DNA of 64,000 nt, taken from contig CAWCRS010000009.1 in NCBI GenBank assembly GCA_963798085.1, positions 128,001-192,000 on the forward strand, read 5' to 3'. A model generated the notes under the pieces. It made no database searches, had not been told where the DNA came from, and saw only the letters and a program-made list of their open reading frames with translations. Shown one piece after another: positions 6,639 through 51,332 of this stretch (its first letter is position 1; each line of letters opens with the position of its first letter). Source of the stretch: an uncultured Gemmatimonadales bacterium. GTDB lineage: Bacteria; Gemmatimonadota; Gemmatimonadetes; Longimicrobiales; RSA9. A program made the position numbers and the translations under genes.

Positions 6639-7283
6639 TCACTTCCCGAAGGCCCTGCCCCCTGCGCCCGCGTACACGAAGCGGAATGTGACGCACCCGG
6701 GTTCCGCACCGGGGCAGTAGTAGCTGAGGATCTGGAGGCGGGCGTAGCGGCCGTCGGCGGTGCGCACGATCCAGGTGGAGGGACGCGGCCGCAGAATATG
6801 GCTGGTCCAGCTGTAGGCGTACCAGTGTGCTATTGCGGTGTTAGTGGAATCGCCGCGCGCACTGCTGGCCGTGTAGCCGGTATCGGGCGCGACAGGCACG
6901 GAATCGAAGGGCGTGTGCTGCAACTCGCGAATGCCACCCTGGCCGGCGAAACCCGCCCCGCCGTTGGCAATGATGTGGAAGCGGCGGAACGCCAGGTCCC
7001 AGCCCAGCGGGTCGCCGGGGGGGACCACACTGCCGCGCGAGAAGTCGAAATACTGCCACACATCAGGCGACGACGCGTCGATCGTGTACGTCACCGGCCC
7101 CAGCAGGCGGTCGCCGATCTCGACTGGTTGCGGCGGTGTGGGTGTAAAGACGGGCACGGAAGGGCGGCGCAGTGTCGACGCCACGAAGATCACGACGAGC
7201 AGCAGCAGCACCGTGACGATCACGATGCGCGCGGTCCGCCCGGGCGCCGCGCCGGCCGCTGCGGGCGCCCCGGGCTCGCTCAC
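6639..7283 (-). CDS. HmuY family haem-binding protein, N-terminally membrane anchored
   Basis: WQYFDFSRG, WDLAFRR, WYAYS...H.L.P and VRTADGRYARLQILSYY motifs typical of HmuY-like proteins. Confidence 0.85.
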   Translation of the reverse strand: MSEPGAPAAAGAAPGRTARIVIVTVLLLLVVIFVASTLRRPSVPVFTPTPPQPVEIGDRLLGPVTYTIDASSPDVWQYFDFSRGSVVPPGDPLGWDLAFRRFHIIANGGAGFAGQGGIRELQHTPFDSVPVAPDTGYTASSARGDSTNTAIAHWYAYSWTSHILRPRPSTWIVRTADGRYARLQILSYYCPGAEPGCVTFRFVYAGAGGRAFGK

Positions 7284-7323
7284 TGCCCGCGCCCACCCGC
7301 GGTTACGACCCGACCCGCCTCAG

Positions 7324-7530
7324 TCAGCGATCGCGCTCGTAGCCGAGGATGCGATTCAGTCGGCTCAGGTAGAACGCCAGACCCACGGCGAGCACGCCGA
7401 AAACGAGTGAGAAGACGAGCACACCCGCCCCGCCCTCCGCGCGGAACGCACGCGCTTCGTACAGCGAGAACCCCAGGCAGAACGCGATCGCCGTGGCGAT
7501 CAGAAAGCGATGAAAACTGATCAGCGACAA
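7324..7530 (-). CDS. Small two-TM membrane protein
   Basis: 68 aa, two hydrophobic helices (FHRFLIATAIAFC...; YLSRL), in operon orientation. Confidence 0.7.
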   Translation of the reverse strand: MSLISFHRFLIATAIAFCLGFSLYEARAFRAEGGAGVLVFSLVFGVLAVGLAFYLSRLNRILGYERDR

Positions 7531-7540
7531 GACTCACCAT

Positions 7541-7699
7541 CCTTCTCTTCACCGCGGAGAGCGCGGAGGGCGCAGGTCAATGCTGGAGTAACGGATTGTC
7601 TTCAATGTACCACGCCATCGGTCGACGTTCTATGGGTGGGAACCGCCACAGAAACGCCATCAGCGCCTCGGCCCTCCGCGATCTCCGCGGTAAAGAAGG
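7541..7699. repeat. REP-like inverted repeat pair
   Basis: CCTTCTCTTCACCGCGGAGAGCGCGGAGGGC (7541-7571) versus the near-perfect reverse complement at 7671-7699. Confidence 0.7.
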
Positions 7700-7701
7700 G
7701 T

Positions 7702-8667
7702 CTAGTCGGTACCGACGAGCTCTTCTTCGAGGTCGTGGCTGAGGTGCTCGCGCAGTTCGGGATGTTCGTGCAGCAGATAACCGCCCATTACGAGCGCCGC
7801 GATGAGGTTGCCGACGATGATGGTCCACCACTGGATGGCATCCAGCAGCCAGGCGGCGACGATGGCGAGCAGGCCGATGAACATCACCTCGAGGGTGACG
7901 AAGAAGAGCACCATGCCCAGCAGCAGGGGCGGCTCGCGGCGGGCCGCTTCGGTCAGAGCGGACGCGATCAGGCCCACAGCCAGGAACGCGACCACGTGCA
8001 GGCCGGTGTAGCCCAGCACGGTCTCCAGGGTGATCTGCACTTCGTGCACGCCGCGGGCGCCGAAGAAGATCGCGGAGCCGAGGGCGCCGGGTGTGAAGAA
8101 CATGCGGCCGTGCACCAGGTCGAGCACGAGGAACCACACCATCACGGCAACGGCGCCCAGCAGACCGGCGACCAGGCCCTCGCGGATCGTGCGGTGCTCG
8201 CGCAGCGCATCGCGCAGCCGGGCCTTGGGCCAGGGCGATGTCATGTAGAGGTAGCGCATCAGCACGGAGCCGGCGATGAGGTTGCCCGCCAGCACGGCCG
8301 GCCAGCCCAGCTCGCGCACGACATTGGTGCCGGTGACGATCACACCTGCGTAGAAGATCATGTCGAACAGCAGGAACCCGAGCACCAGGCCAAGCAGGAA
8401 GTACGGCGGGATGTGGGCCCGGTCCAGCGTCCATGACACGGCAATGCCGACCAGGATGAACACCGTGAAGTGGAACGCCGTGTACATGGCGAGCAGCACG
8501 GCGCCCGGCTGCGCACCGTGCAGGTTGAGCAGTGCACTGGCGACGAAGGTGGGCGTGTAGAACGGCGTCGCGCGGGCCAGATCGATGGCCAGGAACCAGA
8601 GCGCGAGTGCTGCGGCGCCCACGAGTCCGGCAACGGCGCCCCGGGAAACGGATCCACTCCACTTCAT
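7702..8667 (-). CDS. Polytopic membrane protein with internal duplication, unknown function
   Basis: Two homologous halves (GAVAGLVGAAALALWF..D.....FYTP / GLVAGLLGAVAVMVWF..D.....FFTP), each with a Y-T-x-x-H motif. GGAGG RBS. Confidence 0.8.
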   Translation of the reverse strand: MKWSGSVSRGAVAGLVGAAALALWFLAIDLARATPFYTPTFVASALLNLHGAQPGAVLLAMYTAFHFTVFILVGIAVSWTLDRAHIPPYFLLGLVLGFLLFDMIFYAGVIVTGTNVVRELGWPAVLAGNLIAGSVLMRYLYMTSPWPKARLRDALREHRTIREGLVAGLLGAVAVMVWFLVLDLVHGRMFFTPGALGSAIFFGARGVHEVQITLETVLGYTGLHVVAFLAVGLIASALTEAARREPPLLLGMVLFFVTLEVMFIGLLAIVAAWLLDAIQWWTIIVGNLIAALVMGGYLLHEHPELREHLSHDLEEELVGTD

Positions 8668-8839
8668 GCTCGCCTCCGGGTCAGCACTCCAGCAGCATTC
8701 ACCGCGGCGGGCGCGGCGGATGCTGACAAAGTCGTGGAAACGACACGGCGCTGATTTCAACCATCTTTGCGTCCCGGCACCGGGGAACGCAATGCTGCAA
8801 TGAGACTGTACCCGCGCTTCCGCGTGCGCCGCGGCAGCG

Positions 8840-8998: not shown

Positions 8999-9005
8999 CG
9001 GATTC

Positions 9006-9317
9006 CTACCAGTGCTCGCGCAGCACGATCACCACGAGGATGACGGCGAGCGGGAAGGGTGCGGCCGCGAACAGCCAGAGTTTGCGCGGCTCGAACCTCA
9101 GGTGCATGTAGTACATCGCGACGAGCAGCGCCTTCCAGATGGCGAGCCCGACCAGGATGAGGATGAGAATGGTCTCGGGAAGTGCCGACAGGAACGCGAC
9201 ACCCAGTTCGGCCCCGGTCAGCACGCCCAGGATGACCCAGATCAGGTAGTAGTTGGGCGCCGCGTGTTTTGCCGGCTCCGCGGATGGCGAGCCATGATCC
9301 GACATGTTGGATGCCAT
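9006..9317 (-). CDS. ctaF: Cytochrome c oxidase subunit IV family (COX4_pro)
   Basis: Three TM helices, KALLVAMYYMHLRFE motif, follows subunit III. Confidence 0.88.
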   Translation of the reverse strand: MASNMSDHGSPSAEPAKHAAPNYYLIWVILGVLTGAELGVAFLSALPETILILILVGLAIWKALLVAMYYMHLRFEPRKLWLFAAAPFPLAVILVVIVLREHW

Positions 9318-9326
9318 GATCGCCTC

Positions 9327-9950
9327 CTAGATCAGGTAAACGATGGTGAACAGGATGATCCAGACCAGGTCCACGAAGTGCCAGTACAGTCCCATGATCT
9401 CGACACCGCCATAGCTGTTCTTCGTGTAGCCGCCTCGCCAGGCCTTGATGAGCGTGAACCAGAGGCAGAGCACGCCGATGGTCACGTGGGTTCCGTGGAA
9501 GCCGGTCATCGTGTAGAACGTGGCACCGTAGAGCGGTCCACCCAGCACGGTCTCGCCACCATGGCGGCCAACAGCGTGATAGAGCGACGCGACCGGGACG
9601 AAGCCTTCGTGCGCCAGCTTGTAGTACTCCACACCCTGAATGCCGAGGAACAGCATGCCGATCAGAGCTGTTGCCAGCAGGTATTTCTTCAGGCCGGCCT
9701 GGTTGCCCTGCTCGATTTCGGCGAACGCCTTCACCATGGTCACGCTGCTGCAGATCAGGATGAAGGTGTTGGCGGCGGTGAGCGCCACGTTCAGCACCTG
9801 GCCCGGCCGCGCGAACTGCTCGGGGTGCGCGAAGCGCAGAATGATGTACGAGCCGATCAGCGCCGTGAAGAACATCACCTCGGACAGCAGGAACACCCAC
9901 ATGCCCAGCTTCAGGTTGTACACACCGAAGCTGGAGTGTCCGCTCTCCAT
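9327..9950 (-). CDS. ctaE: Haem-copper oxidase subunit III
   Basis: KLGMWVFLLSEVMFF, NTFILICSS, FYTMTGFHGTHV, YWHFVDLVW. True start may be about 9975 (indel). Confidence 0.95.
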   Translation of the reverse strand: MESGHSSFGVYNLKLGMWVFLLSEVMFFTALIGSYIILRFAHPEQFARPGQVLNVALTAANTFILICSSVTMVKAFAEIEQGNQAGLKKYLLATALIGMLFLGIQGVEYYKLAHEGFVPVASLYHAVGRHGGETVLGGPLYGATFYTMTGFHGTHVTIGVLCLWFTLIKAWRGGYTKNSYGGVEIMGLYWHFVDLVWIILFTIVYLI

Positions 9951-10015
9951 TGTGGCCGCGGCTGCAGTGCGTCATTTCTTCGTGGCTCCTTTGCGTGAGT
10001 GCTGTGTCGCGTCCA

Positions 10016-11814
10016 CTAGTGGCCGCGTGGGGCACGGGCTGCCCCGTCGGCGGCTGCGTCTGCACAGGAAGTCGGCTTGTCCCGGGCGAGCTGTACTCGT
10101 ACGGGCCGCGATAGACCGTGGGCATCGCGTCGCCCCAGTTGCCGTGCGGCGGCGGCGAGGGCGTGGTCCACTCGAGCGAATTGGCTTCCCACGGATTCGT
10201 GCCCGCCTTCTTCCCGGCGAACAAGCTCCAGAAGAAGTTGAACACGAAGATGAACTGCGACAGCGAACAGCAGGAACGCGCTGATGGAAATGAACACGTT
10301 CGTGGCTGCATCGGCTTCAGGAAATGTGCGGATACTGCGTCGGATCGTACAGCCGCCGCATCATGCCCGCCGATGCCGAGCGAGTGCATCGGGAAGAACG
10401 TCAGGTTGAAGAAGATGAACGTGAGCCAGAAGTGGATCTTGCCCAGCGTGTCGTTCATCATGCGGCCGAACATTTTTGGGAACCAGTAACTGATCGCGCC
10501 GAAGATGCCGAACAGGCTGCCGCCGAAGAGCACGTAGTGGATGTGCGCGACGACGAAGTAGGTGTCGTGCAGTGGAATGTCGACCGGCGCTGCGGCCATG
10601 AAGATGCCGGACAGCCCGCCGATCATGAACAGCGCCGACGAAGCCGACAGCGCGTACAGCATGGGCGCGTGGAAGCGGATGTTGCCGCCCCACATCGTGC
10701 CCAGCCAGTTGAACATCTTGATGGCCGAGGGCACGGCAATCATCAGGGTGGTCACCATGAAGAGGCCGCCGAGCAGCGGGTTCATGCCGCTGACGAACAT
10801 GTGGTGGCCCCACACGATCCAGCCGATGAAGCCAATGCCGACGATGGCGCAGACCATCGGCGTGGTAGCCGAAGATCGGCTTGCGCGCGCCGTTGGCGAT
10901 GATGTCGGAGACGAAGCCCATGCGCGGGCAGGATCAGGATGTAGACCTCGGGATGGCCGAAGAACCAGAACAGGTGCTGCCAGAGCAGCGGCTGGCCGCC
11001 GCTGGCCGGCTTGAAGAAGCCGGTGCCGAGAGTCTGATCGAAGAACTGCAGGATCAGGCCGCCCGCGAGAACCGGCACGGCCGAGCAGCATGCAGCATCG
11101 ACGTGATGAACAGCGCCCACGTCGAGAGCGGCAGCCGGAACCAGGTCAGGCCCGGCGCGCGCATGTTGATCGAGCGTGGTGATGTAGTTCACCGAGCCCA
11201 TGAGCGACGAGAAGCCCAGAGGATCAGCGAGGCAGTTCCCACAGTCTGCTGCCCGAGGTGCACGCCGCTGTACTCGGGACTGACGCTGAGCGGCGCATAC
11301 GCCGGTCCAGCCCGGCATTGGCGGCACCGCCCACGCACGAACGAAGCTGGCCAGCATCAGCAGACCGGCCGGGCAAGGCCATCCAGAACGGACACCATGT
11401 TGAGCCGCGGGAACGCCATGTCGGGCGCGCCGATCTGCAGCGGGATCAGGAAATTCGCCCACACACCCGACAAGCAGCGGCATGATGGCGAAGAACACCA
11501 TGATCGTGCCGTGCATGGTGACCAGCGCATTGTAGAACTCCGGCAGCATCACGCCACTGGTCGACCATGGTCTCGGGGAACAGCTGGCGCCGGGCAGCGG
11601 ACGCGCGCGGATTGGACGGCCACGCCAGCTGCCACCGCATGGCCATGGCAAGCAGCCCGCCCACGAGCAGGAAGAACAGGCTCATGAACAGGAACTGGAT
11701 GCCGATGACCTTGTGATCGGTGGAGAAGATGTACTTGCGCAGGAACGGCATTTCTTCGTGCTCCCCGTGAGCGCCGTGGGGCCGGGACTCCTGCGCCATT
11801 GCGGCGGTGCTCAT
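10016..11814 (-). CDS. ctaD: Cytochrome c oxidase subunit I, A1-type (multiple frameshifts)
   Basis: Fragments in several frames give [73 protein letters not shown]. Confidence 0.95.
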
Positions 11815-12615
11815 GTTGTCGACTCCTCCGGTCTCTCGGTGCTCATGGCTGGTGGCTCGTCGTGGCCACCGCTGTGGGTGTAGCGGCTGGCGGGGGCGCG
11901 GCATTGCCTGCCGCGGCCAGGCGGGCGGCCTCGCTTCTCGGCGGCGGCCGCCGCCTGCTGCTGCGCGTTCCAGGACGCGAAATCGGCGGCCGAATGCACC
12001 GTCAACGCGCCCTTCATGCGGTAGTGACCCAGGCCGCACAGCTCGGCGCAGCCGATCGCGTAATCGCCGGTTTCCGTCGCCTGGAACCAGGCCTGGATGC
12101 GCATGCCCGGCACGGCATCCTGCTTCAGCCGGAAATTCGGCAGGAAGAAGGAATGGATCACGTCCTCGGACATGAGCGTGACCTGCACGGGCACACCCAC
12201 CGGCACGTGCAGCTGGTTGCGGCGCACGAAATCATCGGGCGTGCCCAGCTGCCCGTCCGCGCCCGGATACGTCACGTTCCACTCGAACTGCTTGGCAGTG
12301 ATGATCAGCTCGAGCCCGGGCGTGGGGAAATGCGCCGGATCCTTGATCCGCAGCCAGATGGGCCGGCTCAGGATGCCGATGTACACCATGATCAGCGCGG
12401 TGGCCGTGGTCCACAGGATTTCCATGCGGCTGTTCCCGTGCGTGTACTTCGCCCGCCGGCCGGGCCGCGCGCGGTACATGATCAGGAACGCGATCAGCAA
12501 CGCCTCGACGCCGAAGAACACGACCACCACGATCCAGTTGACCAGATGGAACAGGTGGTCAATGTCGGCGCCGAACGTCGAGACATTCGTGGGGAAAGTG
12601 CCAGAAGCGATCCAT
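11811..12615 (-). CDS. ctaC: Cytochrome c oxidase subunit II (CuA), no fused cytochrome c (frameshift near N-terminus)
   Basis: HGNSRMEILWT, KQFEW, DVIHSFF, CAELCGLGHYRM CuA motif. Confidence 0.93.
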
Positions 12616-12648
12616 GTCGCGTCTCCGTTGGCCTGGGTGCCGTGAGCG

Positions 12649-13531
12649 TCAGCGCTGCGCGGGCGAGGCGGGGACCGCCGCCGCCACGTGCCCGTGCCCG
12701 CCCGTCAGGTCGTGCAGGTCGATCGACTTTCGCCTTCGGCTCGACCGTCGCCATTGATGCGTTGTAGTCGAAGTTCACGGTAACAGTACCGTCAGGCGCG
12801 ACCGTGATCTGCCTGGTCTGCTTGCCGTACTTCTCGTGCCACGCCTCGAGTGTGTAGTCGCCGGGCGGCACGTTGCCGATGCTGAAGCTGCCATCATCGC
12901 CGCTCACCGCGAAGTAGGGATCGGACACGACATTGATCCACATGTGCATCCAGCCGTGCACGTCGCACTTCACGGCGAACGTCTCGGGCGAACTGAACGA
13001 CGTCGTGGTCACCATGGTCGTGGGCTGGCCGCGATTGAACTCGCGGTTGACCGTCGACTCGGTGTGGATGTTGTGCAGGATGCCGTCGCTGTTCTTGATG
13101 TCGACGTTCTCGCCCGCCATCACGCCCAGCACGTGCGGCACATAGATGCAGCCGTTCTGATCGATCGTGGTCTTGCCCGTGGGCGGGAACGTACCGGTCA
13201 GGCCCGCCGTGATGTGAATGAACACATTCTTGAGCTTGCCGTTGTTCGCGACCACGGTCTCTTCGGTCTGCGGCGTGGTGTGCTTGTCCGCGCAGGTCTG
13301 CTCGGCGCTCATGTCGATCGTCTTCATGGCCGGTGCCGTGCCCGCGAAATTGACGACACCACTGATGGTTCCGGCATTGGCGACTGCCGCCGGCGCTGCC
13401 GCTGCACCGCCCGCCGGTGCCGCGCCACCGCCCTGCGCTCCCTGCTGTCCACCACCGCCACCACCGCACGCCGTCAGTGCGCCCGCCAGAATCACTGCCA
13501 CCGCTCCGGTGGAAATGCGTGTATCGAACAT
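12649..13531 (-). CDS. Cupredoxin-like lipoprotein with carboxypeptidase-regulatory-like domains
   Basis: Lipobox LTAC, HNIH ... CDVHGWM putative type-1 copper ligands, PPGDYTLEAWHE. The 3' end is reconstructed across an indel. Confidence 0.8.
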
Positions 13532-13560
13532 CGTGCCTCCCGTCGAGGTGGTTGGAACCG

Positions 13561-15440
13561 TCATCCCTTGCGCCCGCCCTCGCGTTCCCGTCGCTGCGCG
13601 CGGCCCACGGCGAAAAGACCGAGGCCCGCGGTCAGCAAGGTGGCGAGGAGCGGCGTCGCATACAACGTCCTGGGCGCAGGTTGGCCCAGATACACGAAAT
13701 ACCAGGTGCTGAGCGAGCCCCTCGTGCCGTGCTCGCCATTGTCGCCGTCCCATGCGAAGAAGGCCACAGGAATGGGCTGGCCGGTGGCAAAGGTCAGCGA
13801 ATTCGTGGAATCCCCGGCCTGGAGCGGGCGCTTGAACACCACGCTCCACTGTCCCTGATCGAACTTCGACTGCGACGTGAGCTTGTTGCCGGCGCCCGGC
13901 AGCAGGTCAATGCGGCCCGGTCCCTTGCCCAGGTTCTCCGTGACCTGCCCGTTCATGGCCGTGCCACCCGCGGAACGGCTCTCCCAGCGCCAGAGGTACA
14001 CGGGCTCGCGCGTGTTGCCCATGAAGAAGTACGGCCGCTCCATGCCTGTGGGAATGCGCTGGGGGAACCAGAGTGCGAGCGCGTCCGGCGCAGGCGGCGC
14101 CATGGCCACGGCCCCTGCGGCAGCGGCGGCGGCCGGGCCCGCTGCGGCAGCCGAGGCGGCGGCGTCGCCTTCCTTCGGTTCCATGATCTCGGTCACGCGG
14201 TTGCGCCACTGCGACCAGATCGTGTCCGGGCTGTTCGAGCGATCGTCCCACTCGACACGGAGGGCGAGGTCGGTGCCGTTGTGGACGGCCTGCACCCAGA
14301 GCCCGGTGACGGCCGGCGAGAACCAGCGCGGCTTGACGATGACCTGGCCCACCAGCGGGATCCAGAAGCGCTCGGCCGCGTGCCATGCAGAATCATCAGG
14401 CGACGACGGGACCTCACCTTCGATCTTCTTCGCCTCGATCACTTCCTTCGGTTGCGGGGTGCCGGCGGGGGCGAGGCTGCGCACGTAGTAGGCAATGCCC
14501 CAGAGGTCCTCATCGGACACCACCTTGGCGTCGAGCGCGTCCGAGAAGGAAGGCATGGGCGTGCCGTCGAGGCCCGTGCGCAGGCGACGATAGATGTCCT
14601 CCACCGTGCCGCCGCCATTGAAGTACCAGGGCTGTGTCAGATCGGCGGGCCGGATGGGCCAGTTGTTGGCATCCTTCTGCGTGGGCGCGGACGGACCATC
14701 GCCGCGGCCCGCCTGGCCGTGGCACTTGAAGCACTGCAGCGTCTGATAGCCCTTGCGCCCTTTCTCGATCATGTCGGCGCTGCTGCCCGGCTGCTTGCTG
14801 AACTGCACGAGCTGCGGCTTGTCCGTCTGGAAGAAGTGCGAAAACGTCTTGATGTACGGCGACCAGGTTCTGCCGCTCCTGCGACGCTGAGCGCATCCTT
14901 CCAGCCGGGCATGGCCGTGCCCGGCATGCCGTTGTCGATGACGTGCAGGATGTCGTCATCGGTGGGCAGCGAGCCGGAGGCCGTGACGCGGATCTGGTAT
15001 TGCGCCTGCACGAAATTTCGGGGACGCGGCAACATGTAGTTGGAACCGGGCCCGTTGCCCGTGCCATCCACGCCATGGCAACCCGAGCACCATTTGTCGT
15101 ACGTCGCTTTGCCCGGGGCATCCTGGGCGGTGGCGCCAGAAACCAGGAGCGCAGTTCCTAACAGCATGGTAGACAGCGCGCGAGCCCCAGCAACGTTTCT
15201 CGGGCTGGGGCTGGGGCTCGGGCTGGCAATGACACGACGATTTGCGTTCGCGGCGTGATCCTCCGGCCGGCGCGACTCCGCGCGTGCGCAAACAGCGCCT
15301 GCGAACGCTGTCCGACCAACGGTGCGCTCAGACCGTTGCGCACTGGCTGAAGAGCCGCCCCCACGCGCGGCACTGCCGCAACGCATGTCCCAGCCCCAGC
15401 CCGAGCCCCAGCCCGAGAAACGCCTCTCAAGGTTGATCAC
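13561..15440 (-). CDS. Dihaem c-type cytochrome fused to ethylbenzene-dehydrogenase-gamma-like (EB_dh/DOMON) haem-b domain, C-terminal TM anchor (frameshifted)
   Basis: CSGCH and CFKCH haem motifs each with a PG/DG-TxMP axial Met. C-terminal domain with VEWDDRS, PYFFMG, WSVVFKRPL, AFFAWDG. GTG start overlaps the upstream TGA; alternative ATG at 15167. Confidence 0.8.
15194..15422. repeat. Palindromic element with about 33-bp terminal inverted repeats (GGGCT-hexamer rich)
   Basis: CGTTTCTCGGGCTGGGGCTGGGGCTCGGGCTGG at 15194-15226 versus the reverse complement of 15390-15422 (2 mismatches). Confidence 0.75.
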
Positions 15441-16243: not shown

Positions 16244-16260
16244 GGCCCGAGCCTCCGCCT

Positions 16261-19017: not shown

Positions 19018-19033
19018 GCGGGACCGGCTCCGT

Positions 19034-20708: not shown

Positions 20709-22942
20709 GCCTGATGCTCCATTGCGCTGCGCATGCCGGGTGCGTCTGCGAATTGCGTCTCTTCGCTCAACGCGCATCGCCTCCCTGCGTGCTCATGAAC
20801 TGCTCGATGGCGGCTTTCGCATCGCGCAGGCGATGCGGTCTTGAAATCGACCGGGCAGGCGCTCGCCTTCTCCGCGACATCGCGGATCGGACAACGCGTC
20901 ACACCCGCCGCCTTCGCTTCCTCGATGAAGCGGCGCATCTCCGGAGTGAGGCCATCCACACCCTCCGCCGCGGCGCGCAGCTGCTTCGTCTGCAGCTCGC
21001 GGAACATCACGAGCATGGTGTCCATGTCGAATGTGTCGGCCTCGATCATGGCCTGCTTGTTCTCGTCCATCACGTGCGTGGTGACGCGCCAGAAGCTGTG
21101 CTCGCGCGCGAATTTCTCGACCGTATTGCGTGCCAGCGGCCGCGCGATGAGCGGTACCAGCTGCAGTCGCTCGAACGCTTCCCGCGTCCACACGACGGGG
21201 TCCGTGGCATTGCGCTCGCGCGTCTGCACGTGACCCGTGTACGGACACTTCACGGTGATCATGGGCGTCGCTGGCAGGGCGTCGTCGTCCAGACCTTCGA
21301 CCACGGTGCGCGTCATGGCCTGCTGCGCCTTCACTTCCGCGAGCGCCAGCTCCTCCGCCGTGCCAATGCCCATGATCAGCTGCATGTGTGTGGGCAGCAG
21401 CTTGCGGATCGCCTCATCGAGGCGCTCGTTGGTGACCATGGGCAGTGCCGCAGGTCCCGCGGCGCTCGCACCATCGGCCTTGTCGTGGGCGCCGCCGGCG
21501 AAGCGCCGTTGCCGTTCAACTGCGCACCGTTGCCGTTGCCGTTCTCGTGCACCGCGTTCGCCGAAGCGTTGTTGCCGCTCGTGCCGTTCGCGCGGCCGGC
21601 CGCCTCACCGGCGTAGGTGCCGTTCGCGCCGGCGCCGTAGTTGTCGAGCACGAACTCCTCGACCGCCTTGCGCGCAATACCCAGCGCGAAGGGCGGCACG
21701 CGCAGGATGCGCACTTCCGCTTCCGGCGCCCATTCGAGACCGGTCTCGCCGTCTTCCTCGATCCAGGGAATCTCGTCGGGGCGCACATCGGTGGTGCCGA
21801 TCAACAGCACGTTAGTGTCCGTCAGGCGGCACAGGTTCTCCGCCTGCGAGCCGATGTCCGTGCCCTCGATGCGGTGGCCGCCGTGGCGGGCCAGAATGAG
21901 CAGCGACGGCTGCACTTCCTCGACCCACTGCAGGATGCACTGGAACGGCTTGCCGATGAGGATCTGCGTCTTGAGCGGCACGGCGGGATGGCGCTCGTGC
22001 ATCACTTCGGCGCGCTTGAGATTCGCCTGGCAGAGACTGCAGCAGGCCCTTGTCGATGATGTTGTTGTGCAGCTCTTCCTGCTCCTCGAACTTGAACACC
22101 TTCGAGGCCTGCACGGAGAGCACATCCTTGATGTTGCCGAACACGGCGTGGTGGTACTCGACATCGAACGCGGAGCAGGCATAGAGCGTGGCGTCGTACT
22201 GCTCGGCCATCTCCAGCGCCACGCGCATGGCCTTGTAGGCGTAGGACGAACCGTCGATGCAGACCATCCAGCTTGCCGCCGCGCAGCGGCCGGTCGTTGC
22301 GCACGACCAGCACGTCCTTCTCCACATTGCGCAGCACGCGCGCGGTGACGCCGCCCATCTGCGACAGTGGCTGGCGGCCGATGCCGTGCCGCCAATGCAG
22401 AGCAGGTCGTACGCGCGGCCGCTCGCAGCCGGCCAGCTTCTCGTCCTGCTCTTCGTCTTCCGCGATGAGGCGGCCGTTCTCGCCGATCTTCACATCGCTG
22501 CGCACGCTTCGCGCCGCCATCGTACTTGTCCGCGATGTTGGGATCGAAGCCGATCAGGCTGGGCAGCCGGCCCTCGCCCGCGGTTCACTTCGCGGATGAT
22601 CTCCTCGTAGTTGATGCCCTCGAGGAGCTGCCGCGTCATGGGCACACCCGCCGCCTCGCACTTCTTCGACGCCTGGTCAGGAACGAGTCGGAGATGAGCT
22701 GCAGTCCCTTCTCGATCAGCTTGTCGTGGATCTTGCGCTGCTTCCGGATCTCGTCCGGCGTCTGGAAACGCGCGGGCAGCCCCGTCTCCAGCTGGCGGAA
22801 GCGGATGTCGTGCAGGCGGGCAGCGTATACGTGATTGGCGGTGATGCGGCCACCGGTGCGCGGTGCACAGCTCGATGGCGCGGTCGATGGCCAGCAGCGA
22901 CTCGGTCGAATTGTCGACCGGTACAATGACTTCACGATACAT
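20705..22942 (-). CDS. Tandem universal stress protein (USP) domains plus PCP_red-like domains and Cys-Pro motifs (frameshifted)
   Basis: MYREVIVPVDNS, VCIDGSSYAYKA, MGGVTARVLR, IGSQAENLCR, WAPEAEVRILRVPPF, WTREAFERLQLVPL. The 3' end is uncertain (20705-20841). Confidence 0.8.
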
Positions 22943-23327
22943 GACGCCTCGCGCTCGGAGTCAACGAAAGCTCGCCCCGAAAAACGCTGCACGGGCATAC
23001 ACACCACCCGCGTGGCGGCGCGGTCAACTCAACGCGCCGTCCGAGCGCTCCTCGAAGCGTCTATCCCGACAGTTGCGACGTGAACGAACCTCAGATTCCC
23101 GAACTTCCATATCGGTACCAGCGCCGCAGCGCCGGCCGGATTCACTCGAGCGCCTGACTCGCCCCCGTTTGTGCGGTTGGCGAGGCCGATTCGTGCCGGG
23201 CGTCAGAACGTCGTGCTGATGTCGGGAAAAACCCGGCGGCGAAGTCGGGGGTGAGAATACCGGGCCGCTTCCGCGAGTGTCAAGGCCACGCGCACGGTGT
23301 TTTCAGGGCGAAAAACGACATTGCGCG

Positions 23328-24056
23328 CTACCGTCCATCGGCGCGGGCAAGGCTGCGCTGCAGGCGGGGCGCAAGCAGAGCGGTGAGTGTGATTGCCAGC
23401 AGGATCCAGGCGACGAGTGCTCGTCCGTGCACCGGCCACGTTCCGGCCTGCGCGCGGAGTGCCTCGTGCAGCGCGCGGAACGGTGCGGCCGCCTGAACGC
23501 GCGCACCCATCGAGTGCGTGACGGGTGTGCGGAAGACGCCCGAAGCGTGCAGCAGCAGCAGTGCCGCCACCGCCGCGAACAACGCGCCCTCGCCCACGGA
23601 CCTGGCCAGCGCGGCGATCCACAGCCCGAGCAGGTTGCTGATGAGCAGCGATCCCAGCAGCACAGCGGGCAGGCCGATCCAGGCGATGCCGGATGCGCGC
23701 GCGGCGACCAGGATCAGCGCGCTGCCGGGAAGCAGCTGGACGAAGTCGACTGCGGCGCCCGCGAACGCCCGGCCCAGCAGCACGCCCGCCGGCGAGAGCG
23801 GCGTGAGTACGAGTCGTCGCACCAGACCGCGCTCCGCATCGCGCAATGCCGGGATGGCGGCGCCGAACGTGCCGAACAGCGTGAACAGCACCGCGTAGAC
23901 CGCGGACGCGTGCACCAGCGGCGCGCCGCCCAGCGCGAGCGCCGCAACCAGCACGGAAGGCACGAAGATGTTGAGCGCGAACAGCCGGCGCCGCCGTGCA
24001 CTGCGCTGCCATTCGACGCGCCAGACCAGCGGCAGCGACCGAACGCGTGAACTCAT
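23328..24056 (-). CDS. ABC-2 type transporter permease
   Basis: About 6 TM helices, DAERGLVRRLVLTPLS motif. ATG overlaps the ATPase stop. Confidence 0.8.
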   Translation of the reverse strand: MSSRVRSLPLVWRVEWQRSARRRRLFALNIFVPSVLVAALALGGAPLVHASAVYAVLFTLFGTFGAAIPALRDAERGLVRRLVLTPLSPAGVLLGRAFAGAAVDFVQLLPGSALILVAARASGIAWIGLPAVLLGSLLISNLLGLWIAALARSVGEGALFAAVAALLLLHASGVFRTPVTHSMGARVQAAAPFRALHEALRAQAGTWPVHGRALVAWILLAITLTALLAPRLQRSLARADGR

Positions 24057-25013
24057 GCGTGCCCGTTTGCTGCTGGCTTCGCGATTGCGTCGTCGGTCCC
24101 GCTGCTCAGCTCTTCGCCGGTGAGGCGGCGGAACACATCGGCCAGCCCGGGCTCGCGCACGCGCACGGACAGGATACGCGCACCCGAGCGCACGAGCGCG
24201 GCGCAGATGTCGGGGAGCACGTCGGCGCCGCGCGCACTCGCGAACACGAGCCCGGATTCGCCCGGCGATGCACGCACGCCAGCGGGCAGATCCGCGGGTG
24301 GCGGAACGGGTGATGTCCAGCTCCACATCGATGCGCGTCTCGCCTGCGACGGAGCGCAGCAGCGCCTGCGCAGGCGAATCCGCGACCTTGCGACCGCGAT
24401 GCAGGAACACAATGCGCGTGGCGAGCGCGGCCGCGGCCGCATCGTTCGTGGCCAGCACCACGGCCGCGCCAGCCTGTGTCCGAGATTGCAGTTCCGCCGT
24501 CAGCGCGAGCAGTGCAGCCGGGTCCAGCCCGATGGTCGGCTCGTCCAGGAGCAGCAGCGCGGGTGCATGCGCCATGGCTTCCACGAGCGCGAGCTTGCGG
24601 CGCATGCCGAACGAGTACTCGCCCGCCGCCACACCGGCATCCGCGGCCAGGCCGAACGCCGCGAGCAGCGCATCGACCGCGCGCGGGCCGGCACCGTTGG
24701 CACGAGCGAAAAAGACGGCGTTCTCGCGGCCGCTCAGCTCGTCGAAGTGGGCCGCCTCATCGGGCGCGTAGCCGAAACGACGCAGAGCCGGAGCGGCATC
24801 GTCGCCTGCAATCCGGTGCCGCGCACCACGCGACGGCGCCAGGTCACCGGCGAGGATGCGCAGCAGCGTGCTCTTGCCGGAACCGTTGGGTCCGAGCAGC
24901 GCCAGCGTTTCGCCCGCGTGCACGGTGAGGTCAATGTCGTGGAGCGCGTCGCGGCCGGAGGCAAAACGGAAGCTCGCGCGCGTGAGAGAGACGAGCGGGG
25001 AAGCCTGCGTCAC
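24053..25013 (-). CDS. ABC transporter ATP-binding protein (frameshift about 24310)
   Basis: GPNGSGKST, YSFGMRRK, LLLLDEPT, C-terminal VREPGLADVFRRLTG. Confidence 0.88.
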
Positions 25014-25052
25014 GGGTCCCGGCCGCCGGCCGCCTCGCCCGCCTGCACGGCG

Positions 25053-25583
25053 TCACATCCCTTCCAGGCCCAGCTCGGTGCGCGCGCGATCCATGACCTC
25101 GGGCGAGATCACGGCGATGCCGTGCTCTTTCGCGTAGTCCGCGTAGATGCGCTTCACCATGCCGCGCACGAAGCCGGGCACCTTCGCGAGTCGTTCCTGC
25201 GCAGCACCATCCCACGTGACGGACAGGGCAGGCGACGCCACGGTTTCCGTTGCCGGCGCCGCTGCGGGCATGGCCGCGGCCGCGGCAGCATGCGGCGCCA
25301 TCCCGCCCACTAACAGCTCGTGAGGCGACGACTCCGTGAACACATCGCTGCGCGCGTCCGCGAGCGTGCTGCGCGTCATTTCCATGGGCTGCTCGGGCAC
25401 GGCGCGCCCGCCAATGCGCACGCCCAGGCTGCTCACCAGCTGCGTTTCCATGGGATTGGTGAGCATGGCGATCTCGTGGCCGCAGCGTGGACACGCGAAG
25501 ACGGCGGCCAGTGTGCCATCACCCGGCACCTGGCGCTCCGCGAAGGCCATCACTTCGTCGCAACCAATGCAGAGGAATTTCAT
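25053..25583 (-). CDS. Zn-ribbon (CxxC...CxxC) plus PCP_red-like domain protein
   Basis: MKFLCIGC...CPRC; C-terminal WDGAAQERLAKVPGFVRGMVKR....YAKEHG....PEVMDRAR. Confidence 0.82.
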   Translation of the reverse strand: MKFLCIGCDEVMAFAERQVPGDGTLAAVFACPRCGHEIAMLTNPMETQLVSSLGVRIGGRAVPEQPMEMTRSTLADARSDVFTESSPHELLVGGMAPHAAAAAAMPAAAPATETVASPALSVTWDGAAQERLAKVPGFVRGMVKRIYADYAKEHGIAVISPEVMDRARTELGLEGM

Positions 25584-26476
25584 GCGGCGTTCCTGCCGCC
25601 GTTCTCGCGCTCGACGCGATCCGCGAGACGGGCGAAGGCGTGGGCCGCGGGCGAGCCGGGCGCCTGCAGCACGAAAGGTTGACCGCGATCCGTCGCCTGA
25701 CCCAGCGCCGGCTCGAAGGGCACATCGGCCCACACCTCGAGTCCCGTCTCTGCGGCCAGCGCGCGCGCGCCATCCGCATCGAACAGCACGCGCGTCTCGC
25801 CGGTGGAGTCGACGTACGCAACCATGTTGGCGACAATGCCGACCGGCGAGATGTTCGCATCGCGCAGCAGGCGAGCGGACTTGGACACGACGAAGCGCGC
25901 GATCTCGGCGGGCGTCGTGACCAGCAGCGTCTGCTGCGGCTGCGGCAGCAGATCGAGCAGCCGCGCAATGCGATCCGTGCCGGGCGGCACATCGAGCAGC
26001 AGATAATCCAGCTCACCCCACACGACATCGGAGAGGAATTCGCGCAGCACGCCCGTCTCCGCGACGCCTCGCCAGATGAAGCCGTCGCCCGTGGGCGCGC
26101 GCCAGCGCAGCGGCGCGTCGTCCTCCTGCAGCAGGTCCATCGACATCACGCGCACACCGCCCGTATTCACGGCCGGCTGCACGCCCTCCTCGTCATCGCG
26201 CAGCTGTGCGCCGGCCACCCCCAGCATGCGTCCCAGCGATGGGCCGTTGAGGTCGGCATCCAGCGCACCCACAAGCGCACCGCGACTGGCGAGCGCCGTG
26301 GCCAGGTTCGCGGTGATGGCGCTCTTGCCCACGCCGCCCTTGCCGCTGAGCACGGGAATGATGGCGCGCACGCCTTCCAAACGGCGTGTCAGGCGGGCGC
26401 GCTGATCCAGCACCTGCTCGAGAATCTGCGAGCCGGTCTCGTGCGCAACTTCGTGGTAGGTACGGATCTTTCTCAT
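25580..26476 (-). CDS. Mrp/NBP35/ApbC-like P-loop ATPase
   Basis: SGKGGVGKS deviant Walker A, DADLNGPS, WRG, WGELDYLLLDVPPGT, VTTP. Confidence 0.9.
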   Translation of the reverse strand: MRKIRTYHEVAHETGSQILEQVLDQRARLTRRLEGVRAIIPVLSGKGGVGKSAITANLATALASRGALVGALDADLNGPSLGRMLGVAGAQLRDDEEGVQPAVNTGGVRVMSMDLLQEDDAPLRWRAPTGDGFIWRGVAETGVLREFLSDVVWGELDYLLLDVPPGTDRIARLLDLLPQPQQTLLVTTPAEIARFVVSKSARLLRDANISPVGIVANMVAYVDSTGETRVLFDADGARALAAETGLEVWADVPFEPALGQATDRGQPFVLQAPGSPAAHAFARLADRVERENGGRNAA

Positions 26477-26736
26477 GGCACCAGCTGTGCGCCGCTCTCG
26501 TCGAACAGCGTCAACGCGGAAACCGGACAGGAGCGACACGATTCGAGCAACCGCTCGCGCTCGATGGTGGCATTGCCATCGCAGAAGACGACGACGCCTT
26601 CCACGCCCATGCGGAACGTCTCCGGCGCCAGGTCGACGCAGGTCTCGAACGCAACGCAGAGGCTGCGGTCAATGCGCACGAGCAGTCCGCCGATGCTGCG
26701 TTCCTCGAAATGCTCCACCGTCGCCTGGTCCGTCAA
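26473..26736 (-). CDS. Small monocluster ferredoxin
   Basis: IDRSLCVAFETCVDLAPETF ... CRSCPVSAL (C-x2-F-x2-C...CP). Confidence 0.85.
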   Translation of the reverse strand: MTDQATVEHFEERSIGGLLVRIDRSLCVAFETCVDLAPETFRMGVEGVVVFCDGNATIERERLLESCRSCPVSALTLFDESGAQLVP

Positions 26737-26764
26737 TGCGCGTGGCGAAGCGGTTCGCCCGCGA

Positions 26765-27073
26765 TCAGGTGCGCGAGCCGGGCTCCTCGAAGGGGAACGG
26801 CAATTCCGACTGGCGTGGGCGAGCGAGGGGCGGCACGCGCGGCTTCTCCGGACGTCGCGCCGGACCCTGCCAGCCGCAGTGCACGCAGAAGCGCCACTCC
26901 GCCCAGGGAAGCACCCAGCGCAGCCAGCGCTTGCGCTGCGGGAAGGTCGAACCGAAGCAGGCCGGGCACTCGACTACCGGCCGCAACAGCAGTGCTGCGC
27001 CCAGCGCGAGCAGCAACCCGCGCAGCAGCACGAGGCCGAGAAGCACGAGAACGGCGAGTTCGGAGGGGTCCAC
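26765..27073 (-). CDS. Small membrane-anchored Zn-ribbon-like protein
   Basis: N-terminal hydrophobic helix, CPAC...CVHC. GTG start after GAGG. Confidence 0.6.
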   Translation of the reverse strand: MDPSELAVLVLLGLVLLRGLLLALGAALLLRPVVECPACFGSTFPQRKRWLRWVLPWAEWRFCVHCGWQGPARRPEKPRVPPLARPRQSELPFPFEEPGSRT

Positions 27074-27246
27074 ATTCCACCTCGACGGCCACCGCACACG
27101 GTCGCGCGCGTGTGAGCGCGACCTTCAACTCGCGTACACCTTGCCGACGCGCTGCGTTCGGCGCGCATACGCACCGCACGGAACAACGGGCAAGGAGCGG
27201 ACCAGCACCCCTGGACCGACTCCCACGTTCCCGTGGCAGAGCTCCA

Positions 27247-27543
27247 CTAGTGATGCGCTGCCCTCATGATGCGCACGCCAACGATGCGGAACGCGATCTT
27301 CGCGAGCAGCGGCAGCAGCAGGACGGTCAGCGCGCAGGCGAAGATGACCGCGCCAATGGGCGGCACTACGGAGTTGAGTCCCAGGCGCAGGAGGTACCAG
27401 ACCACGAGGTACAGCACCAGCGTACCCGCCAGGCCGAGCAGATGACGCCCGCCGCCACCACCTTCGATCTGGATCGGGAACCCACCCAGGTACAGTGCGG
27501 CCACGCTCCAGAACAGCGCGAGCGGTGCGAGCCAGGCGACCAC
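27247..27543 (-). CDS. Small three-TM membrane protein
   Basis: GGAGG RBS before GTG, LFWSVAALYLGG... hydrophobic. Artificially fused to HemL in the ORF track. Confidence 0.7.
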   Translation of the reverse strand: MVAWLAPLALFWSVAALYLGGFPIQIEGGGGGRHLLGLAGTLVLYLVVWYLLRLGLNSVVPPIGAVIFACALTVLLLPLLAKIAFRIVGVRIMRAAHH

Positions 27544-27664
27544 GTTGACCTCCGTCAATGCGTCGGGTTGCGTTTGGTGTCGGGAAACGGCCCGCCGGAC
27601 ATGCCGCGGGCCGCGCGGCGAGGATCGTACGCGCTCGGCGCGCGCGTGACAAGCGGCGTGCGGG

Positions 27665-28950
27665 CTAGCGGGCCCGCACCATGGCTTCGCGGGCCGCAAT
27701 GCGGAACCGCTCCAGCTCGGCATCGCCGTGCGCAACCGACACGAACGCCGACTCGAAGGGCGATGGTGCCAGGTAATGCCGCCCTCGAGCATGGCGCGGA
27801 AGAAGCGCGTGAAGCGCTCCCGGTCGCATGCGGCCGCGCCCTCCCAGTCCAGCACCGGCTGCGACGAAAAGAAGAAGCCGAACATGGAGCCGATCGCGGA
27901 TACCACGATCGGCACACCGGCGTCGTTGGCCGCGGCCTCGAGCGCCTGCGCGGTGTTGCGCGCCGTGTCCTCGAGCGTGGGCCAGACGCCGGCCTTGTCC
28001 AGCGCCTCGAGCGTGGCCAGTCCCGCGTGCATCGTGACCGGATTGCCGGAGAGCGTGCCTGCCTGGTAGACGGGGCCGGCGGGTGCGACGCGCTCCATGA
28101 TCTCGCGACGCCCGCCGAACGCACCCACCGGCAGGCCGCCGCCGATCACCTTGCCCAGCGTGGTGAGGTCCGGGGTCACGCCATACCGCGCCTGGGCGCC
28201 GCCCGGCGCGACGCGGAAGCCGGTCATCACCTCATCGAAAACCAGCAGTGCGCCATGCTCGGTGGTAATGCGACGCAGCTCCTGCAGGAACGTGGGCCGG
28301 GGCAGCACCAGACCCATGTTGCCCGCGACCGGCTCGACCAGCACGGCCGCGATCTGACCGGGATTCGCCTCGCACAACGCACGCACGGAGTCCGCATTGT
28401 TGTAGCGCGCCACGAGCGTGTCCGCGACCGTGGCCGCGGGTACACCCGGCGAGTCCGGCAGTCCCAGCGTCGCCACGCCCGAACCTGCCTGCACCAGCAG
28501 CATGTCCGCGTGCCCGTGATAACAGCCTGCAAACTTGATGAGCTTCGTGCGACCGGTGAACGCGCGCGCCACGCGGATCGTGCTCATGACCGCCTCGGTG
28601 CCCGAGCTGACGAAGCGCATGCGCTCGAGACTGGGCATACGCGACTGGATCTTCTCGGCGAGTTCGATCTCCGCTGTGGTGGGCGCGCCGAAGCTGGTGC
28701 CGCGTCTGGCTGCGTCGGCAATCGCGCGCAGGACGGCAATGTGCGCGTGACCCAGAACGAGCGGGCCCCAGGACAGGACGTAGTCGACGAAGCGGTTCCC
28801 GTCCGCGTCGATCACATACGCGCCTTCGCCCCGCTGAATGAACAGCGGGTCGCCACCGACCGAACGGAACGCGCGAACCGGCGAGTTGACGCCGCCCGGA
28901 AACAGCGCGAGCGCCTTCTGGAAGAGGCGGGCAGAGGTCTCGGTCTTCAT
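27665..28950 (-). CDS. hemL: Glutamate-1-semialdehyde 2,1-aminomutase (frameshift near 3' end)
   Basis: PGGVNSPVRAF, SSGTEA, GCYHGH, FDEVMTGFR, TLGKVIGGGLP, YQAGTLSGNP. Confidence 0.96.

Positions 28951-50298: not shown

Positions 50299-51332
<1,034 letters not shown>

Follow-up and report, generated by a model that had tools for sequence, protein, structure and literature searches.

In this study, we analysed a 64,000-nucleotide stretch of DNA from an uncultured Gemmatimonadales bacterium (contig CAWCRS010000009.1, positions 128,001 to 192,000), to which we refer as the window. It corresponds to G000:C9:128001-192000 of the source genome G000, an assembly of 6.23 Mb in 12 contigs that is 90% complete. 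The subject is a row of minus-strand genes in which a homologue of the cytochrome bd subunit CydA (here called the bd-like protein), three cytochromes c and a cupredoxin are followed by the subunits of a haem-copper oxidase of the aa3 type, and the question is which part the bd-like module plays in the respiration of its host.

Gene row in the window

Since the G+C content of the window is about 67%, open frames alone carry little meaning; genes were called from third-position G+C, from Pfam searches covering every minus-strand stop-to-stop frame (123 in total) from 5647 to 31105, and by tblastn with intact orthologues. As intact reference we used G025, a complete genome of the same order and another family, in which the cluster is unbroken. 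The upstream half of the row codes for HemL, a small unknown protein, a ferredoxin, an Mrp/NUBPL ATPase, a PCP_red protein, a fused ABC transporter, a Usp-PCP_red protein and a radical-SAM/SPASM/PCP_red enzyme. The downstream half codes for the bd-like protein, a dihaem cytochrome c (cytc1), a monohaem cytochrome c with three transmembrane (TM) helices (cytc2), a dihaem cytochrome c with an EB_dh domain (c+EB_dh), the cupredoxin, CoxII, CoxI, CoxIII, CoxIV, an unknown membrane protein and an HmuY-like protein (Table 1). An earlier note on this DNA had given the core order as CydA-like protein, three cytochromes c, cupredoxin and CoxII-I-III-IV, which Pfam on the frames and tblastn bear out, while its figure of about 25 consecutive genes comes down to about 20 in our count. 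The window's own copy carries five CxxCH motifs, GHPEV in CoxI, the CuA site in CoxII, CDVHGWM in the cupredoxin, and WMPINIHR, HHP and HWH in the bd-like protein.

Table 1. Features of the gene row, in the direction of transcription, with the evidence for each call and the properties of the intact G025 orthologue (aa, amino acids)
Feature	Position	Strand	Evidence	G025 orthologue
hemL (glutamate-1-semialdehyde aminomutase), upstream flank	27247..28950	-	TIGR00713 559.8 bits, cut-off 527.3	
Small 4Fe-4S ferredoxin	26473..26736	-	Fer4_13; orthologue at the same place in G025 and most of 80 loci	
Mrp/NUBPL-type Fe-S cluster carrier ATPase	25580..26539	-	PF10609 222.6 bits; 57% identity to G025 neighbour	
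Small protein with terminal PCP_red (BchB C-terminal-like) domain	25053..25733	-	PF08369 48.4 bits; 227-aa counterpart in locus L028	
Fused ABC ATPase and ABC-2 permease	23328..25013	-	PF00005, PF01061	Absent at equivalent place
Usp-domain protein with C-terminal PCP_red, three frames here	20705..22945	-	Pfam, tblastn; orthologue in 79/80 loci	
AhbD/NirJ-like radical-SAM/SPASM enzyme with C-terminal PCP_red, two frames here	19321..20777	-	Pfam; CNLACAHC at 20526-20549	
bd-like CydA homologue (OR-N type), at least three frames here	17267..19100	-	PF01654 59.2 bits, profile positions 34-197 only	613 aa; no CxxCH
Membrane-anchored dihaem cytochrome c (cytc1), three pieces here	16264..17064	-	CTACH at 16874, CLSCH at 16477	267 aa; N-terminal anchor, two CxxCH
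Monohaem cytochrome c with three TM helices (cytc2), predicted subunit of the bd-like protein	15437..16243	-	CLPCH at 15731; complex model	267 aa; three TM helices, one CxxCH
Dihaem cytochrome c with EB_dh (NxrC-like, putative haem b domain) and C-terminal TM anchor	13561..15160	-	PF09459 68.2 bits; CSGCH, CFKCH	525 aa; signal peptide, two CxxCH, EB_dh domain, C-terminal anchor
Cupredoxin lipoprotein inside a CarboxypepD_reg-like beta-sandwich	12494..13545	-	CDVHGWM at 12947-12967, HNI at 13067	294 aa; lipobox-like N-terminus, C-x2-H-x2-M
CoxII with CuA site, no fused cytochrome c	11811..12610	-	PF00116, PF02790; CAELCGLGHYRM at 12015-12050	229 aa; CuA ligands, no cytochrome c domain
CoxI, A1-type, at least four pieces here	9990..11790	-	PF00115 pieces; GHPEV at 10944-10958	585 aa; GHPEV, A1-type; PF00115 497.5 bits
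CoxIII	9327..9968	-	PF00510; 68% identity to G025	
CoxIV (prokaryotic subunit IV)	9006..9317	-	PF03626 53.1 bits	
Conserved multi-TM protein downstream of cox	7702..8760	-	44% identity to G025 neighbour; in 32/80 loci	
HmuY-like haem-binding protein, flank	6639..7283	-	PF14064 60.3 bits	

Frame breaks

The coding sequence of at least seven genes in the block is distributed over two to four frames; these are the genes of the bd-like protein, cytc1, c+EB_dh, CoxI, the radical-SAM enzyme, the Usp-PCP_red protein and, at its 3' end, hemL. For the latter the TIGR00713 match ends at residue 396 of a 570-residue frame, whose 3' end is probably frame-shifted, and the frame of the cupredoxin is probably over-extended at its 3' end through an indel. 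So many split genes could be read as a decaying array of pseudogenes with real frameshifts, in which the block no longer works. However, unrelated genes are split across the genome as well: a second CoxI on contig C3, hemE and hemB in the window (split or cut) and ActB on contig C10. Furthermore, a contig derived from short reads of a soil metagenome, which differs over 14755-15118 in six other letters, has one base fewer at 14857 and at 14887, and removal of these two bases turns c+EB_dh into a single frame matching residues 3-516 of the G025 orthologue. This comparison covers the one DNA run listed for the stretch, a soil metagenome (0.12 share of sampled words), in short pieces, with a usable record of 362 bases (14755-15118), and no RNA run is listed; CoxI indels in the same run stem from more divergent contigs and were excluded from the evidence. 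Third-position G+C stays high across every piece of the split genes. Because the independent contig lacks the two bases, third-position G+C is high and all catalytic motifs are intact, the breaks in the block look like assembly indels and not like decay, and we regard a pseudogene array as highly improbable. The G000 assembly needs polishing before any of its genes is called a pseudogene. A further split gene, a glyoxalase, was seen at 30177-30711.

The bd-like protein and its family

By its sequence, the bd-like protein is a member of the OR-N (bd-like) family of the cytochrome bd superfamily, with homology confined to the N-terminal part, a His19 equivalent, no Q-loop and about 14 TM helices. 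Against PF01654, the G025 protein scores 76.2 bits over profile positions 3-248 of 418, which corresponds to the first five helices only. Among solved CydA chains it aligns with residues 6-208 of 5doq_A from Geobacillus (E 3.9e-12), and no alignment was found after helix 5. H71 aligns with His21 of the Geobacillus enzyme, the His19-type ligand, E158 corresponds to one of the two channel glutamates, and H239 lies adjacent to the His186-type ligand. All three residues are invariant in 9 Gemmatimonadota sequences; H71 is also kept in the homologue on L112, a metagenome contig discussed below, and a distant homologue (P0029) is without the His19 equivalent. Averaged hydropathy gives 13 hydrophobic segments in addition to an N-terminal one, and hydrophobic helices occupy the stretch of the Q-loop, where neither a CydA-type Q-loop nor quinol-binding residues are recognisable, quinol sites of other kinds being invisible to sequence comparison. 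An AlphaFold2 model built from a 9-row alignment (predicted local distance difference test, pLDDT, 49.2; predicted TM-score, pTM, 0.34) contains 14 long helices and was used for the helix count only.

These properties agree with those that the preprint of Murali, Gennis and Hemp (10.1101/2021.01.16.426971) gives in its account of OR-N1 and OR-N2, i.e. absence of the Q-loop, a retained His19 equivalent, about 14 TM helices and c-cytochromes replacing CydB. The same account takes the N-terminal part as the oxygen-reduction site common to the whole superfamily and describes OR-N2 as having no second CydA in the operon. The label OR-N2 for the present protein is a putative one that follows this literature description. 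Proteins of matching description also appear in the Nitrospina genome paper (PMC3578206). In a protein library at 50% identity, 239 representatives match at E <= 1e-30, one of which, 40% identical to the bd-like protein, is named Nitrospira sp. and Candidatus Manganitrophaceae. Three representatives of the family (P0002, P0004 and P0016; 784-889 aa) carry one or two C-terminal cytochrome c domains; they are single metagenomic records and may be natural fusions or read-through calls.

Cytochromes, cupredoxin, oxidase and putative maturation enzyme

Multimer prediction, one of the checks proposed in the earlier note, returned a predicted interface between the bd-like protein and cytc2, with an interface score (ipSAE) of 0.73 (median of 3 runs) versus 0.00 for the best control. 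The mark of 0.73 is reached by 116 of 157 solved complexes and by 2 of 215 mismatched pairs, a calibration that is roughly valid here, own alignments having been used. Between runs at least 53% of the contacts agree, and the partner pLDDT is at least 76. The predicted interface joins cytc2 residues 28-69 to bd-like residues 322-394 including the conserved HHP loop, so that the helices of cytc2 are predicted to pack on helices 7-8 of the bd-like protein. The model supports binding of the two proteins, and a search against solved CydA chains returned no solved complex of like kind. This model and the bd-like proteins with cytochrome c domains described above speak for a physical association of the bd-like protein with c-haems.

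For the cupredoxin, a model of the orthologue (pLDDT 83.9, from an alignment of 17 sequences) matches amicyanin, plastocyanin and pseudoazurin with a Foldseek probability of 1.0 and target TM-scores of 0.55-0.74, and H157, C194, H197 and M200 are invariant in the 17 sequences. A cupredoxin fold with the type-1 copper ligand set is therefore a solid call, and copper binding is predicted. The CuA ligand pattern C-x-E-x-C-x3-H-x2-M, present in CoxII of both the window and G025, identifies the neighbouring enzyme as a cytochrome c oxidase and not a quinol oxidase. CoxI is A1-type because of GHPEV, the helix-VI glutamate motif, and together with subunits II, III and IV it makes up an A1-type haem-copper oxidase (aa3); against TIGR02891, CoxI of G025 scores 632.2 bits, slightly below the cut-off of 670.75.

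The c+EB_dh protein scores well above the PF09459 cut-off of 33.3 in the window (Table 1) and in G025 (60.9 bits), and thereby matches the family of gamma subunits. This match, together with a layout of one TM helix and two haem-c motifs like that of the alternative NxrC of Nitrospira (PMC6606698), raises the idea that the module serves a periplasmic dehydrogenase of the type-II DMSO-reductase family, encoded elsewhere, as membrane anchor and electron sink. Docking of the catalytic subunits would then fall to the EB_dh domain, as it does to NxrC, and electrons would pass on to aa3 or to the bd-like protein. We consider this improbable: the TIGR03477 score of 86.8 bits is far below the cut-off of 169.85, and neither the cluster of the window nor that of G025 nor the paralogous ones contain a molybdopterin subunit, although no search of the genomes for a catalytic pair encoded apart was made. 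Across 18 sequences including paralogues, none of the Met, Lys and His residues that could serve as haem b ligand of EB_dh is invariant.

The radical-SAM enzyme, which additionally carries PCP_red, is assigned broadly to the AhbD/NirJ radical-SAM/SPASM family; scores of the full-length orthologue against AhbD and NirJ2 are 272 and 271 bits, each short of the cut-off of 500. Three proteins of the row (Table 1) end in PCP_red, the C-terminal domain of the protochlorophyllide reductase BchB. No chlorophyll genes were found near them, and PCP_red may act in this row as a tetrapyrrole-handling domain that serves haem.

Conservation and separability of the two halves

To place the row in context, one genome per species was scanned, which gave at least 595 loci with a bd-like relative; locus counts refer to the best 80 of these, all with titles of Gemmatimonadota type, and the closest public loci are titled as Longimicrobiales or Gemmatimonadota metagenome-assembled genomes. 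All nine genes from the bd-like gene to CoxIV are colinear on one strand in 55 of the 56 loci with at least 9.8 kb downstream of the bd-like start, and the only thing missing from the remaining locus is a match to the 88-residue CoxIV. The synteny survey that had been suggested thus shows that the bd-like block and cox adjoin phylum-wide and not only in this genome. The radical-SAM gene stands directly upstream of the bd-like gene in 77 of 79 loci. Median identity to G025 is highest in the row for the bd-like protein (75.8%), compared to 70.7% for CoxI. Neighbouring genes in G025 overlap or are separated by at most 91 bases, followed by a gap of about 500 bases after CoxIV. A promoter and terminator scan of the G025 cluster gave nothing beyond chance, with 5 terminator-like sites between genes on that strand versus 5.6 expected, an outcome compatible with co-transcription as well as with separate transcripts.

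In a phylum sample of 151 evenly drawn Gemmatimonadota genomes from 83 genera, the bd-like gene is present in 41 genomes and 24 genera. The same 41 genomes have a full-length c+EB_dh about 3 kb from it, other genomes yielding partial dihaem matches only. The radical-SAM-PCP_red orthologue (at least 58% identity) likewise occurs in exactly these 41 genomes and is always adjacent; all other matches are 33-48% identical and without PCP_red. Cluster-type CoxI (66-100% identity) lies on the contig of the bd-like gene, about 7 kb off, in 39 of the 41, and in the other two the contig ends first. Since every other CoxI of the sample is at most about 55% identical, the cluster cox forms a clade of its own. 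This clade is found in 43 genomes, of which 39 have it beside the module, 2 lack the module and 2 are unresolved at contig ends; all 41 module carriers have a cluster-type aa3 in the genome. Among relatives of the source genome, strong bd-like matches (E <= 2.5e-69) were obtained in 14 of 24 other genomes of the same family, 3 of 8 of family f2 and 1 of 8 of family f3.

This layout bears on the proposal, made in the earlier note, that the bd-like block is an electron-input module for aa3. In its explicit form, menaquinol would be oxidised at a site built from the helices found in place of the Q-loop, and CuA of the co-encoded CoxII would receive the electrons by way of five c-haems, the EB_dh haem b and the cupredoxin, possibly within a supercomplex. 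The arrangement mirrors that of operons in which alternative complex III (ACIII) precedes its oxidase, and the near-complete colinearity, the tight spacing without a terminator-like site beyond chance, the private cox clade with 39 of 43 genomes holding it beside the module, and the presence of that aa3 in every sampled genome that has the module all speak for such a link. So does the CoxII without a fused cytochrome c, where the genome's other A-type oxidase has one, and the reading has the merit of giving each gene of the island one non-redundant role. An equivalent idea was raised for the Nitrospina and anammox homologues in PMC3578206.

However, the module also occurs without an adjacent cox. 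Two genomes, the complete G157 and G100, contain a paralogue as their second module, comprising a bd-like gene at 52-54% identity and cytc1-like, cytc2-like and c+EB_dh-like genes; the 20 kb retrieved include no cox gene. In both paralogous loci (L108, G157:C1:2104000-2123999, 6183-15530; L110, G100:C8) two tandem cupredoxin-type genes and an extra pair of cytc2-like and c/EB_dh genes lie upstream. Of 9 loci from a metagenome scan with P0021, the full unit is present only in L112, a contig of 51% G+C, where the order bd-like, cytochrome c, cytochrome c, c+EB_dh is followed by metK with no cox nearby, and where a second, divergent bd-like gene is found. The proteins of this unit are 46%, 40% and 33% identical to those of Gemmatimonadota (bd-like 46% to G025), while its bd-like protein reaches 58-64% identity with proteins under the names Candidatus Nitrospira bockiana, Nitrospira sp. 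Kam-Ns4a and Nitrospirales. The nearest named relatives outside the phylum are thus, as judged by identity, Nitrospirales proteins. Conversely, two genomes of one genus (G107 and G158) have the cluster-type cox without a bd-like gene and are also devoid of the radical-SAM-PCP_red gene; in G107 a divergent amino-acid permease precedes CoxII and ctaA follows CoxIV. Because the module exists without cox in G157, G100 and L112 and the cluster cox without the module in G107, the bd-like module and cox are separable halves.

Other respiratory enzymes of the hosts

The block itself contains no Rieske protein, cytochrome b, NrfD, molybdopterin-like or ActB/C/D-type subunit in a Pfam scan, and the earlier statement that neither bc1 nor ACIII is in the window holds for the window. 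For the module itself, this concerns membership in the bc1 and ACIII classes and has no bearing on a possible likeness in function. Both are, however, encoded elsewhere in the genome: on contig C10, a row of ACIII genes is followed after 40 kb by a Rieske/cytochrome b pair with multihaem cytochromes next to it. The latter precede the pair (L121, G000:C10:104000-116999, 2-7504), and one of them has an MtrC/MtrF-like domain. Contig C3 holds a caa3 oxidase, with cytochrome c fused to CoxII, together with ctaA and another haem-copper oxidase, and contig C5 a canonical CydA. Since the genome thus has ACIII, Rieske/cytochrome b and caa3 elsewhere, a substitute for complex III is not needed.

The anticorrelation with complex III that an electron-input function had been expected to produce is absent from the phylum sample. 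The ACIII marker ActD (PF11821) is found in 142 of 151 genomes, 41/41 with the cluster and 101/110 without, and cytochrome b (PF00033) in 22/41 cluster genomes versus 56/110 others. A negative association was instead found with an oxidase and not with a quinol oxidiser. The cbb3 marker CcoO (PF02433), present in 35 of 151 genomes, occurs in none of the 41 with the cluster and in 35 of the 110 others (Fisher 4.8e-6); at the level of the 83 genera, the cluster is found in 24 and cbb3 in 20, without overlap (Fisher 4.6e-4). In a separate relatives set of 15 further cluster genomes and 15 further genomes without the cluster, CcoO is full-length in G003 and partially matched in G008, and 4 of the 15 others match. 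G003 is an assembly of 830 contigs and may be a mixed bin. For the sets combined, CcoO is found in 2/56 cluster genomes versus 39/125 others (Fisher 1.3e-5), and 2 genera are shared between the 38 and the 26 concerned among 108 (p 7e-4). These tests ignore relatedness, and the p-values hence overstate the significance. Canonical CydA shows a weak trend (9/41 cluster genomes versus 43/110 others) and co-occurs freely with cbb3 (17 genomes with both). The inverse relation to cbb3 suggests that the module has an oxidase-like role.

Considering these results, the synteny with cox that underlies the electron-input proposal stands, whereas the complex III anticorrelation fails, the halves are separable and the exclusion concerns cbb3. 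In addition, nothing past helix 5 aligns with CydA and no quinol-binding feature is recognisable, the host already possesses ACIII, a Rieske/cytochrome b complex and caa3, and a pure electron relay would not need the His19-type haem site, which is nevertheless kept. We therefore hold an input device for aa3 to be possible, but doubtful. Its strongest version, in which the module would represent, next to bc1 and ACIII and without kinship to either, a third class of quinol:cytochrome c/cupredoxin oxidoreductase that is hard-wired to its own aa3, with the radical-SAM-PCP_red enzyme supplying haem, appears unlikely to us; if true, it would form with aa3 a self-contained branch from quinol to oxygen.

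Proposed function

We propose, as a tentative reading, that the block consists of two separable membrane machines in an operon-like row, an OR-N-type bd-like module that would reduce O2 and an A1-type aa3 cytochrome c oxidase. The module comprises the 14-helix bd-like haem b protein, two membrane cytochromes c, the NxrC-like protein with two c-haems and a putative haem b, and the blue-copper lipoprotein, and is likely a cytochrome-c/cupredoxin-fed O2 reductase that shares carriers with aa3. In such a scheme, ACIII or the Rieske/cytochrome b complex encoded elsewhere would fill a periplasmic pool of c-haem and copper carriers, from which electrons would enter the bd-like protein via the module's own cytochromes and cupredoxin. 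O2 would be reduced at the conserved N-terminal four-helix haem site, which would provide the cell with a cbb3-like high-affinity branch. The shared carriers would also feed the aa3 oxidase, here taken as co-transcribed, and the AhbD/NirJ-like radical-SAM-PCP_red enzyme would make or tailor the haem of the module.

We favour O2 reduction because the N-terminal haem core is kept, in a superfamily whose tested members all reduce O2, because the module is independent of cox, and because it nearly excludes cbb3 and not any quinol oxidiser. The predicted association with c-haems, the strict co-occurrence with a putative maturation enzyme and the Nitrospirales relatives in a unit without cox nearby also count in its favour. 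An argument by elimination comes from Nitrospira: PMC12342949 and PMC10839748 treat OR-N enzymes as putative cytochrome c-oxidising O2 reductases and list three cultured Nitrospirales without an oxygen reductase of another type, and PMC12342949 states the same of some cultured aerobic Nitrospira.

Several points weigh against an O2-reducing module. In the bd-like protein the other canonical proton-channel glutamate is a tyrosine, and with a model as poor as the present one (pLDDT 49.2) the haem site is not open to inspection. To our knowledge, no member of the bd-like family has been purified, and O2 reduction is inferred throughout. Two oxidases in one operon are unusual, the usual order being a donor complex and then an oxidase, as in ACIII-cox operons. 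A donor would also suit the finding that the module is always accompanied by the cluster-type aa3 in its genome (41/41), whereas 2 genomes have the aa3 clade and no module. The cbb3 exclusion is not absolute, with both enzymes in G003 and a partial CcoO-like match in G008, and it may partly reflect shared ancestry. Finally, the four-gene unit is also reported for strictly anaerobic anammox bacteria, for which quinone-linked or reverse electron flow is proposed in PMC6606698 and PMC3578206.

Flanking and neighbouring genes

The multi-TM gene downstream of CoxIV is probably a transcription unit separate from cox. Its product (L024:8069-9025 in another locus) has an internal repeat and no Pfam or NCBIfam match, and the nearest clusters in the ESM Atlas are unnamed and come from Binatota, Methylomirabilota and Gemmatimonadota. 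The HmuY-like gene is not conserved with the cluster, a DUF192 gene standing in its place in G025. Divergent from hemL, a gene at 28977-29990 (plus strand) codes for 337 aa with a cytochrome c domain at the C-terminus. The region is rich in haem genes beyond the limits of the cluster, with a SURF1 oxidase-assembly gene at 623-1651 (minus strand) and a haem biosynthesis row at 46059-54366 (minus strand) consisting of hemA, hemC, hemD, hemB, a split hemE and a hemY-like oxidase gene. The product of a gene at 61241-62479 (minus strand) combines a TIR domain at its N-terminus with a CarboxypepD_reg domain at its C-terminus.

Comparison with known systems

The earlier note had presented the module as undescribed, which does not hold: the four-gene unit is already described for Nitrospira, Nitrospina and anammox bacteria in PMC6606698 and PMC3578206, and the family is catalogued as OR-N in 10.1101/2021.01.16.426971. 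According to PMC6606698, Nitrospira moscoviensis has two such units. The first places two cytochrome c genes between the bd-like oxidase and an alternative NxrC, and a terminal oxidase was proposed from putative haem and copper sites. The second joins the bd-like protein to two membrane-bound c-cytochromes and an alternative NxrC with one TM helix and two haem-binding motifs; it is conserved in Nitrospina and anammox bacteria, with reverse electron flow proposed. In Manganitrophaceae the unit is called TO_1 and includes a periplasmic cytochrome b (PMC9040806). A Gemmatimonadota version of the cluster was found in none of the literature searched, by title or abstract, and the string 'Gemmatimonad' is absent from the main text of the OR-N preprint, whose supplementary phylum tables may list the phylum. 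Consequently, the protein family and the four-gene unit are known, and what is new is their join with aa3, the cupredoxin lipoprotein and the radical-SAM-PCP_red gene; both functions weighed here, O2 reductase and electron input, are already in print as hypotheses.

The question of what bd-like oxidases do in nitrite oxidisers and anammox bacteria dates back to the first genome notices. The hosts examined until now grow slowly as autotrophs, and in them the module is tied up with nitrite oxidoreductase (NXR). Gemmatimonadota offer a cleaner context, as likely heterotrophs with ACIII, without NXR and with a standard aa3 next door, and the natural versions with cox, without cox and with cox only open a route by comparison and heterologous expression to distinguish an oxygen reductase from a quinol oxidiser. 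The strict co-occurrence of the radical-SAM/PCP_red gene and the near-exclusion of cbb3 are leads for experiment, neither of which was found in the searched literature, the OR-N supplements aside.

Among known systems, the module resembles most directly the cluster of Nitrospira, Nitrospina and anammox bacteria (bd-like_2/NIDE0901-type and bd-like_3-type), with four proteins in matching order and with cupredoxins reported in the Nitrospina/Kuenenia cluster too. The likeness holds at the level of the unit, and either of the two Nitrospira paralogues may be the orthologue. In contrast to that cluster, there is no nitrite oxidoreductase here, the unit adjoins genes for aa3, a cupredoxin lipoprotein and the radical-SAM-PCP_red enzyme, and the Gemmatimonadota hosts are likely aerobic heterotrophs with ACIII. 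With OR-N1/OR-N2 enzymes it shares the missing Q-loop, the His19 equivalent, about 14 TM helices and c-cytochromes in place of CydB. As in the ACIII-caa3 operon and supercomplex, a multi-haem membrane module lies directly upstream of an A-type oxidase, but there is no homology, the block being without NrfD, a molybdopterin-like subunit and ActD, and a true ACIII is encoded elsewhere in the genome. The cbb3 oxidases are similar in that a catalytic membrane subunit is served by membrane-anchored mono- and dihaem c subunits, although the bd-like protein and CcoN have no sequence relationship. With canonical cytochrome bd (CydAB) the N-terminal haem-binding helices are homologous, whereas the module lacks the Q-loop, CydB and CydX and has instead nine further unrelated helices and c-haem partners.

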